A stretch of DNA of 64,000 nt, taken from IMG/VR virus record IMGVR_UViG_3300035520_000451. One strand, given 5' to 3'. Positions within the stretch are counted from its first letter, which is position 1. Each line of letters starts with the position of its first letter. This document shows positions 11,275 through 64,000 of this stretch, piece after piece. A program made the position numbers and the translations under genes. The notes under the pieces were generated by a model. The model was not told the DNA's origin. It saw nothing but the letters and a program-made list of their open reading frames with translations, and searched no databases. This stretch comes from a virus. Its lineage: Duplodnaviria > Heunggongvirae > Uroviricota > Caudoviricetes.

Positions 11275-12003
11275 CTAACGCTCTATTTCTTTCATACTGT
11301 CCCATTCTTTAATTAAATTAAAATCAAGATCAAATTGTAAAATTGCGCAACCTCCATAATTATTTTTGCCATATTTCCAATGTTTTTCTCCAGAATGAGT
11401 TTCTGATAAAGTTTTTAGAGTTTTTTCTGAATGCTTATAGCCAACAATTCCATCACCTCCATTAGTTAAATTATAACCAAATTTATGATCAGAAGTTTTA
11501 TATTTATTAATATAATATATTTCTTTTTCGTTAACAATATCATTCAATAATTTTTTGTTCTCCGGCGTATTATCTAGAACGTCTGTTTGAAACAATATTA
11601 CTTTATCAAATTTATCCCAGCCATACTTTCTTATAGCTTTGTAAAAATAATTATTACCTTTTTCTGCTTTATTTCTATGCTCACTGAAACGTTCCTCATA
11701 ATTAGATTTTACTGTTTCTCCTATATATAATTTATTATTAATAGTATTTATAAAACAGTAAACTGTTCCTATAATTTTTTCTTTTAATACAATTATGGGA
11801 GATTCAATAATTAACATATCTGGTAAAGAATTTGTAACAATATTATTTAAATCACTTTTACTATTTCTCCCTTTTAAAAATCTAGCACAGGTAGGACATC
11901 CATATTTTCCATCTAAAAATGTTCTTGGGGTAGTTCTAAACTCACCATGATCTTTACAAACAATCGTAACATAATTTTTTTCCTGATTTGAAAAAGGCTC
12001 CAC
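11275..12003 (-). CDS. GIY-YIG homing endonuclease with N-terminal zinc finger and NUMOD3-like repeat
   Basis: GTVYCFIN...KLYIGET (GIY-YIG), RFSEHR, C-x2-C...CPTC zinc finger, HSEKTLKTLSETHSG NUMOD3-like. Confidence 0.7.
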   Translation of the reverse strand: MEPFSNQEKNYVTIVCKDHGEFRTTPRTFLDGKYGCPTCARFLKGRNSKSDLNNIVTNSLPDMLIIESPIIVLKEKIIGTVYCFINTINNKLYIGETVKSNYEERFSEHRNKAEKGNNYFYKAIRKYGWDKFDKVILFQTDVLDNTPENKKLLNDIVNEKEIYYINKYKTSDHKFGYNLTNGGDGIVGYKHSEKTLKTLSETHSGEKHWKYGKNNYGGCAILQFDLDFNLIKEWDSMKEIER

Positions 12004-12168
12004 TTTTGAATAATCAAATTGTGGAAACTTTTCATTAGCCTTCTACAAAAATTTAACTAATTTTTCTTCTTTATTCATAATATTTTATTTAATACATTAT
12101 TACTCTTCATGTGTAAAGATATTGAATTTTTAATTATCCATCAAATAAAATTTTTATAAATAATAATA

Positions 12169-17051: not shown

Positions 17052-18065
17052 TTATAATTCTTTTATATGTTTAACTCGTTGTTCGACCTCCTGTTGCTTA
17101 CCAACGTTAAATGACGTCTTGTAGTCTCCGGTAAGGTAGCCTGTTACACGACGTAATCGTTTGATATTTTTACTACCGCACATAGGACAAGTATCATTCA
17201 ATTCATCAATATAACCACAGTCTTGACAAGAATCATTTGGTACATTAATGGCAAAGTATGGAATATCATGATCCATTGCATAATTAACAATCTCTTCAAT
17301 AGCTTCTGGATTATGCTTAGTAGAAGCAGGTAATTCAACATAAGTTATACAACCTGCACTACTGAAACCAGTAAGCTGTGATTCAATTTCAATTTTCTCA
17401 AATGGAGTGCATTCATGCCATACAGGTACGTGCATACTATTAGTAAAGAACTCACGTTCTGTAATTCCTGGAACTTCGCCAAATTGCTTCTTAAATTTCT
17501 GCATTGCTGTATAACACAGATTTTCAGCAGGAGTATAGTAAACACCAAAATTAAGTTTATAAGCTTCTTTGAATTCACTACATCTCTTCTTAAAGAGAGC
17601 TTCTAATTCTTTAGCTTTATCCATAATTTCTGAATCAGTGTGGTCTTTACCGAAAATAATTCTCAAAGCTTCTGATAATCCTAATTGACCAATAGCTAAA
17701 GTACCATGTTTTAATGCTGAACGGATACCTTCTTCAGGTTTATATCCATACATTACATTATTTTGATACATAAACTTAGCGGATGCAGCATCTTGACTAC
17801 ATATCCAATCAAATCGTTCAATTAGCATATCTTTTGCTTCATGAATCTTAGTATCCAACAATTCAATAAATTTATTCCATACTAAATCCTTGATATTTAC
17901 ATCTGCATTATCCATATTAGATATAGCTTGCAGTTTAGAATTCATTGCAAGTGTAGGAAGTATGATTGTAACAGGACAGATATTACCTCTACCATCTTTA
18001 AGTTGACCAAAACCATTAATATCCCAGCCATTCGCAGTTCTACACATTTTACCCAATGTCACCAT
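17052..18065 (-). CDS. nrdD: anaerobic ribonucleotide reductase NrdD, exon 2 (glycyl-radical domain)
   Basis: C-terminal Zn ribbon CQDCGYIDELNDTCPMCG and glycyl radical motif RVTGYL; MCRTANG aligns to E. coli NrdD MGCRSFLG. Confidence 0.85.
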   Translation of the reverse strand: MVTLGKMCRTANGWDINGFGQLKDGRGNICPVTIILPTLAMNSKLQAISNMDNADVNIKDLVWNKFIELLDTKIHEAKDMLIERFDWICSQDAASAKFMYQNNVMYGYKPEEGIRSALKHGTLAIGQLGLSEALRIIFGKDHTDSEIMDKAKELEALFKKRCSEFKEAYKLNFGVYYTPAENLCYTAMQKFKKQFGEVPGITEREFFTNSMHVPVWHECTPFEKIEIESQLTGFSSAGCITYVELPASTKHNPEAIEEIVNYAMDHDIPYFAINVPNDSCQDCGYIDELNDTCPMCGSKNIKRLRRVTGYLTGDYKTSFNVGKQQEVEQRVKHIKEL

Positions 18066-18331
18066 CGGAACTGACTATATGTTCATTCCTTGTTTCACAA
18101 CAAAGAGTTGTCTCTTGTTTGGAATCGGTGCTTATCTCCGATCCTACAGGGCTACACTCATCACCCTTAGTCGATACACATTCTGTACTAATATAACTAT
18201 AAGTACATTAGCACGGTCTCATCTTATTATTTACACTGCAATTATATAATAAGACCTAACCGTTAGCTTCTACGCTTAAATAGAAACACCCCTTAAGCAG
18301 GGTTAAAGAGATTTTAAATGGGCTGCAGTTT
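18066..18331 (-). other. ORF-less group-I-like intron interrupting nrdD (approximate bounds)
   Basis: 266-nt GC-richer, stem-rich segment with no ORF between two halves of one NrdD reading frame. Confidence 0.55.
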
Positions 18332-19549
18332 TCACTTACCCATTGTACTGAAATAAGTGCGAGGATCGTTTATATCATACCCTTCATTACCAGACCAATC
18401 TACATTGGCATAATTAGGGTATAACCTAAGACTCGTAACCTTAGTAGCTTCTTGGAATATATCATAATTCGGATCTCCAGGTTTTCGATTAACACCTTTC
18501 ATTAATTGAACGATACAGCACGGAAAAATCGGAGTGCTATGATGGCTACCAATACCATTCTTACTTACTTCAAGTAAAGCTAGACTAATAAGACGTCCTT
18601 CAGGTTGTGTACAAGTACCATAATTAATAGAAGTAAAAGGTAATTGATTACCACTTCTACTTTGTAGAGTATTTAAATTATGATACATACCTTCAACAGC
18701 TTGATGAATTTCTCGTTTAGTCATATCCAAAGCATATTCATAAGAATTAGGATGTTCTTTATACAAACTATCTTCTATAGACAAATCTGTTTGATCGTAT
18801 TTTTCATTACGAATGTGATCAATATACTTCAATCCAGTTCTATAATGCTTATTAAAAGATAGTCTTACATAGGGAACCATAGTCCAATCTAAATGAGTTG
18901 CAGATACACCACCAAATTGTTGTAAACTTTGTACTTGGAATATTACAGCTAATAATTGAAATGCTGTATTAATACTCTTAGCAGGTCTAACATCAGTTTG
19001 CTTTAGCTTAAACCCGTTAGCAAGTAAGTCATCTACTGGTATGCTCAAACAGTTGTGCATCCCTACAGCGTAAGAATCCAAATCATGAATGTATATTTCA
19101 TTATTTTCATGATTATGCTTAGCCATTTCAGACATACAATAATTAAGAGCATAATCTTTAGTTACAACTCTACCTGCTTCGCCAATACGTCCACCAAATG
19201 AATGCTCATCAATATTAGCATTTTGATTTTTTACATTAGAAGCTTCAAGTTTAGATTTAATACCTTTAATGAGTTTATCTTTTTCAGCACGGATCATCTT
19301 ACGTTCTTCTCTATAAAGAATATAAGCTTTAGCTACATCTGAATATCCATAATCCATTAAAAGTTCTTCAACTTGATCTTGTATATCTTCAATACTGATA
19401 TTATCCCAAATCTGGACTTCATCTACAATTTCCTCAATAGTTTTAGGGATACTTTCGTACCCACATTCTTTAAATGCTGCTGAAACTGCATTTACAATTT
19501 TACTTCTATTAAACTCAGCGGGCTCACCGTTTCTTTTTGTTACTTTCAT
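18332..19549 (-). CDS. nrdD: anaerobic ribonucleotide reductase NrdD, exon 1 (ATP-cone plus barrel)
   Basis: N-terminal ATP cone (VTKRNGEPAEFNRSKI); C-terminus ends FSTMGK, continuing into exon 2. Confidence 0.85.
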   Translation of the reverse strand: MKVTKRNGEPAEFNRSKIVNAVSAAFKECGYESIPKTIEEIVDEVQIWDNISIEDIQDQVEELLMDYGYSDVAKAYILYREERKMIRAEKDKLIKGIKSKLEASNVKNQNANIDEHSFGGRIGEAGRVVTKDYALNYCMSEMAKHNHENNEIYIHDLDSYAVGMHNCLSIPVDDLLANGFKLKQTDVRPAKSINTAFQLLAVIFQVQSLQQFGGVSATHLDWTMVPYVRLSFNKHYRTGLKYIDHIRNEKYDQTDLSIEDSLYKEHPNSYEYALDMTKREIHQAVEGMYHNLNTLQSRSGNQLPFTSINYGTCTQPEGRLISLALLEVSKNGIGSHHSTPIFPCCIVQLMKGVNRKPGDPNYDIFQEATKVTSLRLYPNYANVDWSGNEGYDINDPRTYFSTMGK

Positions 19550-38753: not shown

Positions 38754-38999
38754 TTATCGTATAAGTTCTTTATCTTATACTTCTATATATTACTATATAG
38801 TTCAGACTATCTCTTTAACTTACAAATGTAAGCAGTGCCCCGCTTTCGTGGAAGATTTTATAGCTACAGCTCTACCTGTTTAGCATCACTTCTAGTCGTT
38901 AGGCGTTTTCCTTTATTTCTAAAGGATTTAGCACGGGATTGTCCTATTTAGGAGTTTCCCCGTTTAACGGAGTTTTAGGTGCGTCTAGCCCTAATTTGG
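38754..38999 (-). other. ORF-less group-I-like intron in the dnaB-like helicase gene (approximate bounds)
   Basis: About 245-nt GC-richer, hairpin-rich non-coding segment (e.g. GGTGCGTCTAGCCCTAATTTGGCGCACC) between two in-frame halves of one helicase. Confidence 0.55.
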
Positions 39000-39770
39000 C
39001 GCACCAGTATCTTTGGTATCATCAATTCTTAAGTTATTTAATCCTTCTTTTCTTCTATCCATAGAAGTAGAATTTCGATTTGCTTGCATAATTACAAGCG
39101 GACTAATTTTACATATATTTCTTAATGTTACCAAATAGGAGGATATTAAATCCATTTCTTCTTTTAGAGTACGTCCATTAGACCTTCTTACTAAACTTAA
39201 ATGGTCTATAACTACTAAATGAGTAAGTTCTTCATTACTAGGATGATATATTTTTCTACCATCTGTTTCTTCAAACTTGCCATCTTTTTCTAGTTGAGCC
39301 ATTAAGATTGTATATAAACTACTAGCATTTAATGCTTTATCATAAATAACTAAAATCTTTTCAACCTTCTGTAACCAAGGTAAACATTCTTGAGTTATTT
39401 TATAATAATCATCAGATAATTTATAATTACGTTTTCTAGAAAGAAGTTCTCCAGTAGACAACTCTATTCCATAAGTTTCAAAGATATACATACTTAATAT
39501 CTTAGCATAGATCATTTCGGCGCTCATCTCTAATGAAAAATAACTAACTTTAAAATTACCATCATCAAGATGTTCCATTAATGGTCTATATACATAAGAA
39601 TATAAAGCAAGTGAACTCTTACCACTACCAGTAGGACTAAATACTAAAGTATAAATTCCTCTAGATACTCCATCTATTATCTCTTCTAATTTTGGGAGAC
39701 CCATTGAGTATCCCCACTGCTTACCTAATCTACCTACTTCAATCTGATGAAGTAATGATTCTGCAATCAT
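38991..39770 (-). CDS. DnaB-like replicative helicase, exon 1 (RecA-like core: H1, H1a, H2)
   Basis: GLPKLEEIIDGVSRGIYTLVFSPTGSGKSS (DnaB loader-facing motif plus Walker A), Walker B VVIDHLSLV, ending DTKDTGA. Confidence 0.65.
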   Translation of the reverse strand: MIAESLLHQIEVGRLGKQWGYSMGLPKLEEIIDGVSRGIYTLVFSPTGSGKSSLALYSYVYRPLMEHLDDGNFKVSYFSLEMSAEMIYAKILSMYIFETYGIELSTGELLSRKRNYKLSDDYYKITQECLPWLQKVEKILVIYDKALNASSLYTILMAQLEKDGKFEETDGRKIYHPSNEELTHLVVIDHLSLVRRSNGRTLKEEMDLISSYLVTLRNICKISPLVIMQANRNSTSMDRRKEGLNNLRIDDTKDTGAPN

Positions 39771-41831: not shown

Positions 41832-42698
41832 TTACTCTAGAACAACACCCTTTACTTTTGCTACTTTTTCAAGTTCGTCTATTTTCTTTTCCCATTGAGA
41901 AACATGGAAAGTAACTTCATTTTCAAGTCTAAACAATACTTTATTTCTAAGCACTGTAAGTTGCTCTGTAGTAAGTTCAGAATATTTCTTAGTACGAAGA
42001 TTAACCATAGCTCTCAATTCGCTGAAGTTTAGTCCTCCAGGTTTTACTGTAAGCTTAACGGAATCCTTAATATTAAGACGTTCCTTAATTAAAGCTAGTT
42101 TACTCTTAGCATTACCTTCACTATCCTTTTCATTGAATTCTTTCATTTCTTCTGGGGTAAGATATACACCCATATTTAAAATGAAGCTAAATGTAATGTG
42201 TTTATTATTAAATAATCCTAGTTGGTCCAAACAAGCATTCATTACAGAATCAATAGAGATATTCTCAAATTCTCTAGGAAGCTTTCCAGTAAAAATACTA
42301 ATAGGAGAAGATGCAAAATCATGCTCTGCAAAATAGTCTGCATTCTTCTTCTTAAAGTCCAAAATATTCTGTAAATACATAAACTTAGGATAGCCTTTAC
42401 CATCTGCACTTATACTACCCAATTCCATCTTACGCATGAATAATTCAATATTGCATTTATCACGTTGCTCTTTAATAATATCCAATAATACATAACGCCC
42501 TGGATTATTTTTATCAGTACTATACAACATTGAGTTACAATGTGCGTAGAATGTTTTCAACTGTTCTGGAGTTGCATCCATTAACTTAATCTCTGGTTGT
42601 GTACCATCAGACTTGCGAGCAAATTTCCACACAAAAGACTTTACATCATTATTCTTTGCGTTAATAGCTTCGGTTAGTTTTTCTTTCATCACTGTCAT
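41832..42698 (-). CDS. hypothetical protein
   Basis: 288-aa ORF. Confidence 0.4.
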   Translation of the reverse strand: MTVMKEKLTEAINAKNNDVKSFVWKFARKSDGTQPEIKLMDATPEQLKTFYAHCNSMLYSTDKNNPGRYVLLDIIKEQRDKCNIELFMRKMELGSISADGKGYPKFMYLQNILDFKKKNADYFAEHDFASSPISIFTGKLPREFENISIDSVMNACLDQLGLFNNKHITFSFILNMGVYLTPEEMKEFNEKDSEGNAKSKLALIKERLNIKDSVKLTVKPGGLNFSELRAMVNLRTKKYSELTTEQLTVLRNKVLFRLENEVTFHVSQWEKKIDELEKVAKVKGVVLE

Positions 42699-42736
42699 AA
42701 TTCAAATTTTCATAATATTTATACTTCTCTGTTATC

Positions 42737-43042
42737 TTACATAACATATTCCACATCTAATTTCTTTGGTTTTTCAATAAACTTTTCAAATCTAATAGCA
42801 TCATATTTATAAGGTATATTTTTAGAACCATCAAACCAAGTATCTTTTCCAGCTATTACTTCTATAAAGAATAGAAATCCAACTTCTCCAAGTTTCAAAG
42901 GTCTGTGATTCCAATTAGGGTACCTAACACACATGATGTATTTGCTTTCTTTGGCTACATCTTCTTCTAAATTCTCAAATACATAAGTTATGTATCCTCC
43001 ATTGTCAGTATACGTTGCTAATAATTGTGCTAAAACCGTCAT
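42737..43042 (-). CDS. hypothetical protein
   Basis: ORF. Confidence 0.4.
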   Translation of the reverse strand: MTVLAQLLATYTDNGGYITYVFENLEEDVAKESKYIMCVRYPNWNHRPLKLGEVGFLFFIEVIAGKDTWFDGSKNIPYKYDAIRFEKFIEKPKKLDVEYVM

Positions 43043-53341: not shown

Positions 53342-53410
53342 TTTCCTTATTGGGATTCGAACCCAAAACTCAATACTATATTGCGCTTTATCCAGTTAAG
53401 CTATAAGGAA
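53342..53410 (-). tRNA. tRNA-like gene with aberrant anticodon arm (possible pseudo-tRNA)
   Basis: Acceptor TTCCTTA/TAAGGAA, D arm GCTT-AACTGGATA-AAGC, T arm TTGGGTTCGAATCCCAA all canonical, but the 18-nt anticodon region GCAATATAGTATTGAGTT cannot form a 5-7-5 arm; 69 nt total. Confidence 0.4.
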
Positions 53411-54357: not shown

Positions 54358-54395
54358 AATTTAAAAAATTAAAATTAATATTTTTAATCTAATGT

Positions 54396-54466
54396 TGGGA
54401 TATTTGGATTCAAACCAAATCTGAAACATCCAAAATGTCTAGTGCTAATCGTTACACCATATCCCA
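54396..54466 (-). tRNA. tRNA-Gln (anticodon TTG)
   Basis: Hand-folded: acceptor TGGGATA/TATCCCA, D arm with GG loop, anticodon stem AGACA/TGTTT, loop TTTTGGA, T arm TTTGG-TTTGAAT-CCAAA. Confidence 0.7.
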
Positions 54467-62596: not shown

Positions 62597-62800
62597 ATGA
62601 ATAAGAAAGGTTGGACAAAAGTAACTCATCCTAATTTAGATGGAATAGGATTTACAAATGGACGTTTTGTAGTAAGTGATTTAGGTGAAGGAAATGTTGG
62701 AAGAGATATTTTCGGACGAACTAGATTAACCGACTTCACTGTAGAGACAGTTCCAGAATTTAAAGCAGCTATGGAACGTAAAGGAGGTATTTTAAAATAA
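62597..62800 (+). CDS. hypothetical protein
   Basis: 67-aa plus-strand ORF after the strand switch. Confidence 0.35.
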   Translation: MNKKGWTKVTHPNLDGIGFTNGRFVVSDLGEGNVGRDIFGRTRLTDFTVETVPEFKAAMERKGGILK

Positions 62801-62867
62801 TTTAACATAATTCAGTAGCATACTTAAATTTAAAGTATTATATTTGCTTATAAAATGAAATGAAAAT

Positions 62868-63155
62868 ATGGAAGAGTTATTTAAATTATTAGAAGAATTA
62901 TACGGTAATGATCCCGTAGCTGAATTCAAAAAGAATTTGGATGAATTAGATGATGACATCTTCTTAAAAGTAGCAGAAGAGTTATCAGAAAAGAAAGTAG
63001 ATTTACACTTGTTAGACAAAGTTTTAGAAAAAGAAAAGAGAACTGAATCGGAAGATTTGTATCTTGAATATATGATGACTCTTATTAATACAATAGTAAG
63101 AAAGCATCTTAAAAATAGAATTAGCGAGTTAACCAGAATGTTAGATAAATTTTAA
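62868..63155 (+). CDS. hypothetical protein
   Basis: 95-aa ORF with AGGAG-like SD. Confidence 0.45.
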   Translation: MEELFKLLEELYGNDPVAEFKKNLDELDDDIFLKVAEELSEKKVDLHLLDKVLEKEKRTESEDLYLEYMMTLINTIVRKHLKNRISELTRMLDKF

Positions 63156-63173
63156 TAGCTTCGGCTATTAAAC

Positions 63174-63467
63174 TCTCCGATGGTGTAATGGCAGCACAGG
63201 ACACTCTTGAATTAAATAGGAGCTTTATATAGAAATATATAAATGAAAACTTCCCTAATAAACAGAAACCTCGATATTGGAAACTTTATCTTTGGCGATG
63301 GCTTACTAAATTCAGCTTGTCTGATAAATGGCGTAGAGACTATATAGGAAGCACCTTTAAAATGGTGAAGAAATAGTCCAGACTACAATACCTTTAAAAT
63401 GGTAGCTTGTGTAAAAGCAAGTGTGGTACGAAATGTTTTAGTCTAGGTTCGAGTCCTAGTCGGAGGA
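63174..63467 (+). tRNA. candidate intron-containing (split) tRNA; anticodon region CTCTT(G)A, putative Lys-CTT, ambiguous
   Basis: 5' half TCTCCGA-TG-GTGT-AATGGCA-GCAC-A-GGACA-CTCTTGA at 63174-63212; 3' half TGTTT-TAGT-CTAGG-TTCGAGT-CCTAG-TCGGAGG-A at 63434-63467; acceptor strands complementary (one G-U); about 220 nt intervening. Confidence 0.4.
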
Positions 63468-63469
63468 CT

Positions 63470-63787
63470 ATGGGAACAATATTTAAATATAATAATCAAT
63501 TGTATCAATGCAACTCTTTAGAAAAGAAATTAAAGAGGATGAAGATTACCCAAGACGATATAGAGGTAATAATGGATTGTGAAGATGCTGAGAAATGGTT
63601 TAATACACTAGTAAATACTCAAGAAAAAGAATCTGAGGAAGATAATATTTACAAATACTACTTTGTCAATGATAAAGGTGAATCTATTACTTCTATTTAC
63701 AATGAAGTACCAGAAGGTTATAAACCAACAACTTATAAACAATTATTAGAATTATGGAACAAACATGTGAAAGAGTTATTGACTTAG
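63470..63787 (+). CDS. hypothetical protein (start likely at MGTIFKY, not the listed upstream Met)
   Basis: GGAGGA precedes the ATG at 63470; the listed start at 63407 would overlap the tRNA 3' half. Confidence 0.4.
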   Translation: MGTIFKYNNQLYQCNSLEKKLKRMKITQDDIEVIMDCEDAEKWFNTLVNTQEKESEEDNIYKYYFVNDKGESITSIYNEVPEGYKPTTYKQLLELWNKHVKELLT

Positions 63788-64000
63788 TAAAAGAGATATG
63801 GAATAATATTGAGAAGGCTGGGATGCAGGATGCCCAGTTTGCAATTAATTTCCTTGACGAACTTAATAAATTGAGCGTTATTCATTAAATGGGATCTTAT
63901 ACTGACTATGGAGAACTACTTGCCGAGTACAGAAGAGTATAGACAAGACATGTTAAAGAAATTAGAGATGAAATAAAAAGACTTCGCTAGGATTTAGGAG

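Follow-up and report, generated by a model that had tools for sequence, protein, structure and literature searches.

The stretch analysed here is a 64,000-nucleotide (nt) piece of DNA from a tailed gut phage (Caudoviricetes; IMG/VR record IMGVR_UViG_3300035520_000451). We refer to it in full as the window, give all coordinates on it, and read positions 62700–64000 directly. Up to 61.8 kb, the minus strand encodes all of its large open reading frames (ORFs), which make up a replication and nucleotide-metabolism module in the standard genetic code. A short island of plus-strand genes contains a split tRNA gene at 63174–63467 (+), whose anticodon loop is interrupted by an intron at 63208–63430. 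We read this locus, with a probability of about 85%, as a glutamine-type amber suppressor tRNA with anticodon CUA whose positions 35 and 36 are separated by a group I intron of 223 nt; it would thus resemble E. coli supE, which is a tRNA-Gln(CUA). Megablast of 24 kb of the window found nothing among the GenBank phages, a collection from which this phage is therefore absent. It is present in the JGI samples 3300043025, 3300035522, 3300035501, 3300043109 and 3300043108.

Default ARAGORN made no call at the locus. In intron mode, the program reported a split gene at 63174–63468, with the intron placed such that a meaningless anticodon (acg) resulted. Once 63208–63430 had been removed from the sequence, ARAGORN returned a clean 72-nt cloverleaf with anticodon CUA, which included one base 3′ of the discriminator. 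The spliced tRNA has all four stems, a 7-nt anticodon loop with U33, U8, A14, the D-loop GG and the T-loop TTCGA. Every tRNA element named in the initial annotation of this DNA was confirmed by direct reading, and the outer ends given there were exact (Table 1).

Homologues in GenBank phages were found by blastn only in Lak megaphages and in the crAss-like phage cr115_1, where they are likewise split tRNAs with the same junction (CUCU, intron, A) and with stems that are different yet complementary. Furthermore, an exact 19-mer from the J8/7–P7 segment retrieved 39 IMG/VR contigs, and all loci with enough sequence proved to be split tRNAs. We aligned 11 distinct CUA-type pre-tRNAs. From these sequences, RNAalifold recovered the four tRNA stems together with the P1, P2, P4, P5, P5a, P6, P7 and P9 helices of a group I intron. 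The full structure, including the P3/P7 pseudoknot and P8, was drawn by hand and compared with controls in which the pairing partners were slid by 1–3 columns, as well as with 500 shuffles. Over the tRNA stems and P1–P9, 93.8% of the cells were paired, compared with 39–45% in the slid controls, and compensatory changes were present in 46 of 84 pairs. The covariation score was 0.459, as opposed to 0.07–0.09 for the slid controls, and none of the 500 shuffles scored as high. All four tRNA stems covary and are 95–100% paired across the homologues.

The initial annotation had proposed that the anticodon loop holds a group I intron of some 220 nt, and the comparative data bear this out with a complete, covariation-backed P1–P9 core and a terminal G. 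The bounds proposed for it (63213–63433) were a few nucleotides off. RF00028, the Rfam group I model, aligned to the intron over its full length in a permissive local search of 461 nt (29.3 bits, E = 1.1e-5). In P1, the wobble at the 5′ splice site is formed by U35 (63207) and G (63219), and the pairs C-G, U-A, C-G and U·G are invariant or nearly so across the homologues. Four of the seven P3 pairs show compensatory change, with 88% of the cells paired. P4 consists of a C:G and an A:U pair (63263–63264 with 63299–63300), and a P4 pair covaries (A:U in five homologues, C:G in five, G:C in one); it is apparently followed by tandem G·A/A·G mismatches, and P5 consists of an A·C wobble plus CC/GG. 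P7 matches the consensus AGACUA/AUAGUC, and its R and S positions line up in the Rfam alignment, with G63338:C63378 beside the bulged A as the expected guanosine-binding site. P8 covaries between CACC/GGUG, UAUC/GAUA and CAUCU/AGAUG, J8/7 reads AAGAAA, and the helices of the P9 region are 100% paired, both hairpins having compensatory changes. The intron ends in A-C-G, the last base being the terminal G (omega-G) at 63430; its relatives end in GUAGUA-N-G. Two sequence blocks had been singled out earlier as group I motifs. Of these, ATAGTCC is indeed the 3′ strand of P7 (63374–63379). The other, CAGACTACA, had been taken for the R element and in fact forms the 5′ side of the helix around the P9 hairpins; GTAGAGACTATA (63333–63344) contains the true 5′ strand of P7. 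A protein-spliced intron of the archaeal/eukaryal bulge-helix-bulge type was rejected, as its canonical site is 37/38 and the intron here sits at 35/36 and has a group I core.

Table 1. Elements of the split tRNA gene and of its intron in the window
Feature	Position	Strand	Details
tRNA 5′ exon	63174–63207	+	TCTCCGA-TG-GTGT-AATGGCA-GCAC-A-GGACA-CTCT; direct reading; exact match to intron-less L100 11902–11943; cloverleaf once spliced
Acceptor stem, 5′ strand	63174–63180	+	TCTCCGA
D arm	63183–63197	+	GTGT-AATGGCA-GCAC
Anticodon stem, 5′ strand	63199–63203	+	GGACA
Anticodon loop, 5′ part	63204–63207	+	C32 U33 C34 U35
Group I intron	63208–63430	+	ORF-free, 223 nt; separates tRNA positions 35 and 36
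P1	63204–63222	+	exon CUCU and intron UG with internal guide UAGGAG (63217–63222)
P2	63224–63243	+	hairpin UUUAUAUA-GAAA-UAUAUAAA; 7/8 pairs compensatory
P3, 5′ strand	63250–63257	+	CUUCC(C)UA; partner UAGGAAG 63345–63351; pseudoknot with P7
P4/J4-5/P5/P5a domain	63263–63300	+	
P5a	63273–63290	+	GAAA tetraloop cap; 6/7 pairs compensatory
P6	63301–63303 with 63330–63332	+	GCU with GGC; RNAalifold
P6a	63312–63324	+	hairpin UCAG-CUUGU-CUGA; without counterpart in L006 and L015
P7	63336–63342 with 63374–63379	+	G(A)GACUA with UAGUCC
P8	63352–63367	+	hairpin CACC-UUUAAAAU-GGUG
P9 region	63382–63430	+	enclosing helix ACUAC 63382–63386 with GUGGU 63423–63427
P9 hairpin	63389–63404	+	UACC-UUUAAAAU-GGUA
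P9 hairpin	63406–63421	+	CUUGU-GUAAAA-GCAAG
tRNA 3′ exon	63431–63467	+	AAA-TGTTT-TAGT-CTAGG-TTCGAGT-CCTAG-TCGGAGG-A; direct reading; exact match to L100 from 11944
Anticodon loop, 3′ part	63431–63433	+	A36 A37 A38
Anticodon stem, 3′ strand	63434–63438	+	TGTTT
Variable loop	63439–63442	+	TAGT, 4 nt
T arm	63443–63459	+	CTAGG-TTCGAGT-CCTAG
Acceptor stem, 3′ strand	63460–63466	+	TCGGAGG
Discriminator	63467	+	A; CCA not encoded

Group I chemistry requires that the 5′ splice site be marked by a U·G pair and that the intron end in G. In all 11 homologues, the U·G wobble is formed by the last U of CUCU, U35, and the base that follows CUCU varies between U, A and C. Joining CUCU to AAA gives the loop CUCUAAA, the only junction that yields 7 nt, and places C34 (63206), U35 (63207) and A36 (63431) in the anticodon. 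The ligated exons are predicted to form a 71-nt tRNA that reads ...GGACACUCUAAAUGUUU.... A degenerate pattern for a Gln-like tRNA with an uninterrupted CUCUAAA loop matched 65 viral contigs. One of them, L100, carries an uninterrupted tRNA identical to the predicted spliced product at 71 of 71 positions; L018 gave an intron-less match at 72 of 72. L100 is syntenic with the window phage (92% identity over 1.7 kb). By blastn, its positions 11902–11943 correspond to window 63166–63207 and 11944–12093 to window 63431–63580, the sole difference at the locus being that 63208–63430 is missing. With the junction moved by 1 nt in either direction, the L100 sequence would no longer be reproduced.

These data bear directly on whether the gene might encode something else. 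The initial annotation had left the anticodon open between CTT (Lys) and CTA, and the DNA at the exon–intron boundary indeed reads CTCTT. Splicing one nucleotide later, after U36, would give a tRNA-Lys(CUU), which ARAGORN would also call were one A of the 3′ exon dropped as well. Such a product would require either that the intron end in A or that the loop have 8 nt; it also disagrees with the U·G pair at U35 in 11 of 11 homologues and with the variable base after CUCU, which leaves CUU unconserved, and the intron-less CUCUAAA allele of L100 is identical to the CUA product. We therefore rejected tRNA-Lys(CUU) in silico, on the position of the U·G, the size of the loop and the L100 allele, and consider it barely credible. 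Because the U·G at U35, the terminal G63430, the 7-nt loop and the intron-less allele all agree, we regard the predicted anticodon as settled: it is CUA, that of an amber suppressor, and the CTA option of the initial annotation stands. A chance juxtaposition of tRNA-like halves with AT-rich sequence that happens to hold group I-like motifs would fit the silence of default tRNA and Rfam scans at the locus. It is refuted by the covariation among dozens of homologous split tRNAs and by the exact intron-less allele, to which the RF00028 E-value of 1.1e-5 can be added, and its probability is negligible.

The evidence for TAG recoding comes from an adjoining contig, L042, found by exact-protein look-up, which shares 11,133 nt with the window at 99.99% identity, belongs to the same phage and reaches 6 kb beyond the window. 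The recoding starts ∼0.8 kb downstream of the tRNA, past the window end. In that part of L042, gene calling with the standard code gave only fragments of at most 107 amino acids (aa). With TAG read as sense, we obtained ORFs of 158, 1053, 500 and >153 aa, with 3, 28, 17 and 3 in-frame TAGs, respectively (51 in total), all of which terminate in TAA or TGA. The same trend was seen across the family of interrupted tRNAs, where loci with a split CUA tRNA gained far more ORF content with TAG as sense than loci with a split sense tRNA (Mann–Whitney p = 4e-5). The 158-aa ORF is a Peptidase_M15_3 endolysin whose domain match spans two TAGs. When it was aligned with 24 homologues, all three of its TAG positions fell on conserved Gln, including the one in the motif FDQIIIE. 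We used the endolysin to assign the amino acid because the 1053-aa recoded protein had no tblastn match in phages. Similarly, the four nearest neighbours of the mature tRNA among 185 distinct intact phage tRNAs were all tRNA-Gln(UUG) (identity 0.68–0.71), and the tRNA-Gln encoded in the window itself at 54394–54466 has an almost identical D arm and anticodon stem. The Gln codon usage of early versus recoded blocks fits TAG = Gln and is non-discriminating, since E, I, C, L and K show the same depletion. As far as aligned positions can tell, these comparisons show TAG to mean Gln in the L042 genes beside the locus. The most economical reading is a supE-type tRNA-Gln(CUA) that would decode TAG as Gln in a recoded block that includes lysis genes. 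The window also holds a tRNA-like element at 53342–53410 (−), missed by ARAGORN and by the Rfam run at gathering threshold; it matches RF00005 with 50.9 bits, and its acceptor, D and T arms are well formed. We rejected it as an intact suppressor; its anticodon arm is only 13 nt long (CAAUA-UAG-UAUUG) and has no 7-nt loop.

Several observations weigh against this interpretation. No gene within the 64-kb window shows convincing TAG read-through. The RF00028 search that the initial annotation had called for delivered the full-length local alignment, and its score of 29.3 bits remained below the gathering threshold of 50 bits; whole-window Rfam scans did not report the intron, either at gathering threshold or with permissive settings. 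Shuffled versions of the sequence are just as stable when folded singly (z = −0.19). No covariation evidence comes from P7, P6 and most of P1; these parts do not vary among the homologues, in part because the set was retrieved with an exact 19-mer out of the P7 region. The terminal G is present in 9 of the 11 CUA-type homologues, and the introns of the other two, L006 and L015, end in A. The assignment to Gln is drawn from similarity and three aligned positions, and some of the close endolysin homologues may themselves have been translated with code 15. Splicing, aminoacylation and suppression are predictions from sequence. With regard to the Rfam score, a homologous tRNA intron in L038 reached 56.0 bits, the only family member above the threshold. 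L006 and L015 themselves have two different CUA tRNA bodies and a near-identical intron without P6a, which ends in ...GTAGTACA, followed by AAC; the G:C pair of P7 is unchanged in both, and both loci look TAG-recoded.

By analogy with characterised group I tRNA introns, from which all of the following steps are taken, the pre-tRNA would be transcribed from the short plus-strand island and its intron would adopt the P1–P9 core. Free guanosine or GTP at the G:C site in P7 would then attack the phosphodiester after U35 (63207), which is chosen by the U·G of P1. Subsequently, the terminal G63430 would take the same P7 site and the 5′ exon would attack the 3′ splice site, joining CUCU to AAA. As no CCA is encoded, it would have to be added to the ligated 71-nt tRNA. 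Charged with Gln, probably by the glutaminyl-tRNA synthetase of the host, the tRNA would read UAG as Gln in the recoded genes ∼0.8 kb downstream, past the window end, including the endolysin. Catalytic self-splicing, aminoacylation with Gln and the timing of expression are what we infer from this analogy.

Two other readings concern whether the locus works in this way and what the intron does for the phage. The locus might be a decaying relic, in which the intron is splice-dead or the tRNA unused and TAG is decoded by a suppressor of the host or of the unseen part of the genome. The sub-threshold RF00028 score, the lack of a thermodynamic signal in folding and the terminal A of two relatives would fit such decay, and a genome visible only in part could hold a second suppressor. 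On the other hand, the window copy keeps all core helices and both splice-site determinants, the compensatory changes (46 of 84 pairs) indicate selection on both tRNA and ribozyme, an identical split gene is maintained in five independent metagenome contigs, and ARAGORN finds no CUA tRNA other than the split gene in the complete genome of cr115_1. Together, these make a relic quite improbable. A functional suppressor could, in turn, use its intron as a gate, such that the switch to TAG = Gln in late and lysis genes depends on splicing. In variants of this idea, GTP, Mg2+ or a phage-encoded factor could set the pace of excision, or the intron could shield the anticodon loop from anticodon nucleases of the host. 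A gate would accord with the finding that Lak megaphages, crAss-like phages and others together retain the intron, free of an endonuclease ORF, in no fewer than 13 different suppressor tRNA sequences, with the position of the cr115_1 split gene directly upstream of TerL, within the TAG-recoded structural block, and with the proposal that recoding times the translation of lytic genes (Borges et al., preprint, 10.1101/2021.08.26.457843). Against it stands that the intron is dispensable, L100 and other pattern-matched contigs having intron-less alleles, that the same family occupies ordinary sense tRNAs and bacterial tRNA-Leu, as a selfish element would, and that we found no sequence feature specific to regulation. 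We consider a gate unlikely, if somewhat less so than decay. Most likely, the intron is a tolerated selfish element within a working suppressor gene, a reading we favour because the close relative L100 manages without it.

The tRNA-Leu(UAA) intron of cyanobacteria and of chloroplast trnL, which belongs to subgroup IC3, is the closest familiar counterpart. Both are small ORF-less group I ribozymes in an anticodon loop, with a P1–P9 architecture, a J4/5, a short P6 and a bulged A in P7, and the window intron's own family is found in 48 Bacteroidales tRNA-Leu(UAA) stretches and in phage tRNA-Leu genes. In contrast, the host gene in the window is a CUA suppressor, the insertion site is 35/36 rather than 34/35, and the guide pairing is GGAG/CUCU instead of GAGU/ACUU. 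Given the shared family with tRNA-Leu(UAA) 34/35 introns and the features that we associate with IC3, the window intron may be an IC3 intron as well. Group I introns in anticodon loops have long been known, at 34/35 in tRNA-Leu, 33/34 in tRNA-fMet and 36/37 in tRNA-Arg (summarised in PMC13011429). The same study describes Patescibacteria introns inserted at 35/36, for which self-splicing in vitro was shown. These share with the window intron the unusual site, the cut after U, the terminal G, the 7-nt loop and a tRNA gene that eludes standard annotation. Compared by description only, they differ in being reported as subgroup IA and in residing in bacterial sense tRNAs, whereas the window intron is of the tRNA-Leu-like type, resides in a phage and interrupts a stop-codon suppressor.

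On the phage side, intron-less suppressor tRNAs with anticodon CUA have been described in TAG-recoded crAss-like and Lak phages (PMC7886860, PMC6784885 and the Borges preprint). They have the same anticodon, the same presumed role of decoding TAG as Gln and a Gln-like body (U1 and the D arm GUGU/GCAC), but the window gene would need RNA splicing and is invisible to default ARAGORN. For Lak tRNAs, Devoto et al. (2019; PMC6784885) reported introns described as ‘enigmatic’, whose positions came from eukaryote-mode tRNAscan-SE; one example in their Table S6 is an intron of ∼93 nt in a tRNA-Tyr, and introns were also noted in Phe, Gly and Thr tRNAs. The term ‘group I’ is absent from the paper, its preprint and its supplements. 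The likeness is thus one of tRNA introns in recoded gut megaphages, and Lak-B1 does have a homologous split CUA gene. We rejected the idea that the reported Tyr(GTA) intron is this same locus, as that Table S6 entry and the Lak-B1 locus at 412,036–412,345 are different genes. A search of literature full text, with coverage that was not exhaustive, returned no prior report of a group I intron in a phage suppressor tRNA. What appears to be new is therefore the combination, a group I intron of the tRNA-Leu type that has moved to 35/36 and interrupts the glutamine amber suppressor of a phage.

In other phages, the same intron family also splits tRNA-Leu(UAA), tRNA-Arg(UCU), tRNA-Lys(UUU) and tRNA-Ile(UAU), always at 34/35 after CUU, and some copies carry HNH endonuclease ORFs (44 bits on HNH_3 in L007). 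Among 185,579 species-representative genomes, the 19-mer occurred in 84 stretches, mostly from metagenome-assembled genomes of Bacteroidales and including chromosome-sized contigs. The classifiable copies interrupt tRNA-Leu(UAA) at 34/35 (n = 48) or tRNA-Lys(UUU) (n = 2), and none lies in a CUA tRNA; some of the Bacteroidales contigs (L115–L194) may be mis-binned phage. The guide sequences differ between the types, GAGU pairing with ACUU in the Leu type and GGAG with CUCU in the suppressor type, which displaces the reactive U·G by one nucleotide. The suppressor intron thus seems to derive from the tRNA-Leu intron of Bacteroidales, through a retargeting specific to phages. Such a one-nucleotide shift of the guide pairing would be a simple route to retargeting. 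With this locus, the recently described 35/36 site is seen in phages as well, and in an intron of the tRNA-Leu type.

Several family members had features of their own. The suppressors of L032 and L038 have a long variable arm and discriminator G and look Ser-like, not Gln-like. The L032 intron, in a CUA tRNA, holds fragments of an HNH-like ORF with in-frame TAG codons, so that translation of the endonuclease would need the very tRNA that its intron interrupts. In L004, L005, L014 and L041, which have split sense tRNAs for Leu, Lys and Arg, the ORF content rises with TGA, not TAG, as sense; this suggests that TGA-recoded phages also host the intron family. L017 contains a RAGATH-1 hammerhead ribozyme (RF03152, 73.3 bits; 1110–1213, −) ∼3.5 kb from its split CUA tRNA.

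Directly around the window's split gene, scans for sigma-70 promoters, terminators and the Bacteroidetes −33/−7 pattern returned nothing informative. A hairpin, AATAGC-TTCG-GCTATT (63154–63169, +), lies between the stop codon of ORF 62868–63155 and the 5′ end of the tRNA. Several homologues also have a GC-rich hairpin directly upstream of the split tRNA, and the one in the window may serve in processing or termination. The next ORF after the tRNA, 63539–63787 (+), ends in TAG directly followed by TAA (63785–63790); with an active amber suppressor, read-through would add one Gln before the true stop. Further into the window, a second group I intron at 38783–39040 (−) scores 70.3 bits on RF00028, above the gathering threshold, and was not listed in the permissive whole-window Rfam run. 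It overlaps the 3′ end of ORF 38991–39770 (−), so that a protein-coding gene is probably interrupted there. Two ORFs, 17052–18065 (−) and 18332–19549 (−), make up the anaerobic ribonucleotide reductase NrdD and match the C- and N-terminal halves, respectively, of the PHROG profile. The gap of ∼266 nt between them (18066–18331) may be another intron; no Rfam family matched it at E ≤ 0.01.

The relative cr115_1 (NC_055898.1), a complete 99.8-kb crAss-like genome of the Suoliviridae, illustrates what such an intron can hide. TerL, the portal and virion genes carry 7–80 in-frame TAGs, and the early genes that we checked have none. Default ARAGORN found only two Leu tRNAs, one Arg tRNA and a permuted transfer-messenger RNA (tmRNA), and the sole CUA tRNA that ARAGORN detects is the split gene, which lies immediately before TerL. 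The permuted call and a 362-nt annotated ‘tmRNA’ coincide in this genome (L048) at 42525–42886. Several papers on TAG-recoded gut phages describe genomes in which TAG is evidently sense and yet no suppressor tRNA could be detected. Yutin et al. (2021; PMC7886860) noted that suppressor tRNAs and recoding often disagree, and proposed that the suppressor either comes from the host or is a phage tRNA too divergent for current detection methods. Similarly, a Crassvirales preprint of August 2026 (10.64898/2026.08.21.746148) describes a TAG-recoded genome without a CUA tRNA, cites the same gap in a Suoliviridae phage and adds incomplete assembly as a possible cause. A suppressor interrupted by an intron that scores below threshold and is not seen by default finders may explain part of these cases: some recoded phages could seem to have no suppressor because a group I intron hides the gene from tRNA finders. 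Phage tRNA inventories are thus likely undercounted, and pipelines for code prediction and annotation of gut viromes should include scans for split tRNAs. If the intron did act as a gate, UAG would remain a stop codon until the ribozyme had excised itself, TAG-laden late and lysis genes would stay untranslated before then, and the intron would be a timer or safety catch on lysis. The locus makes the idea that RNA splicing gates a genetic-code switch testable.

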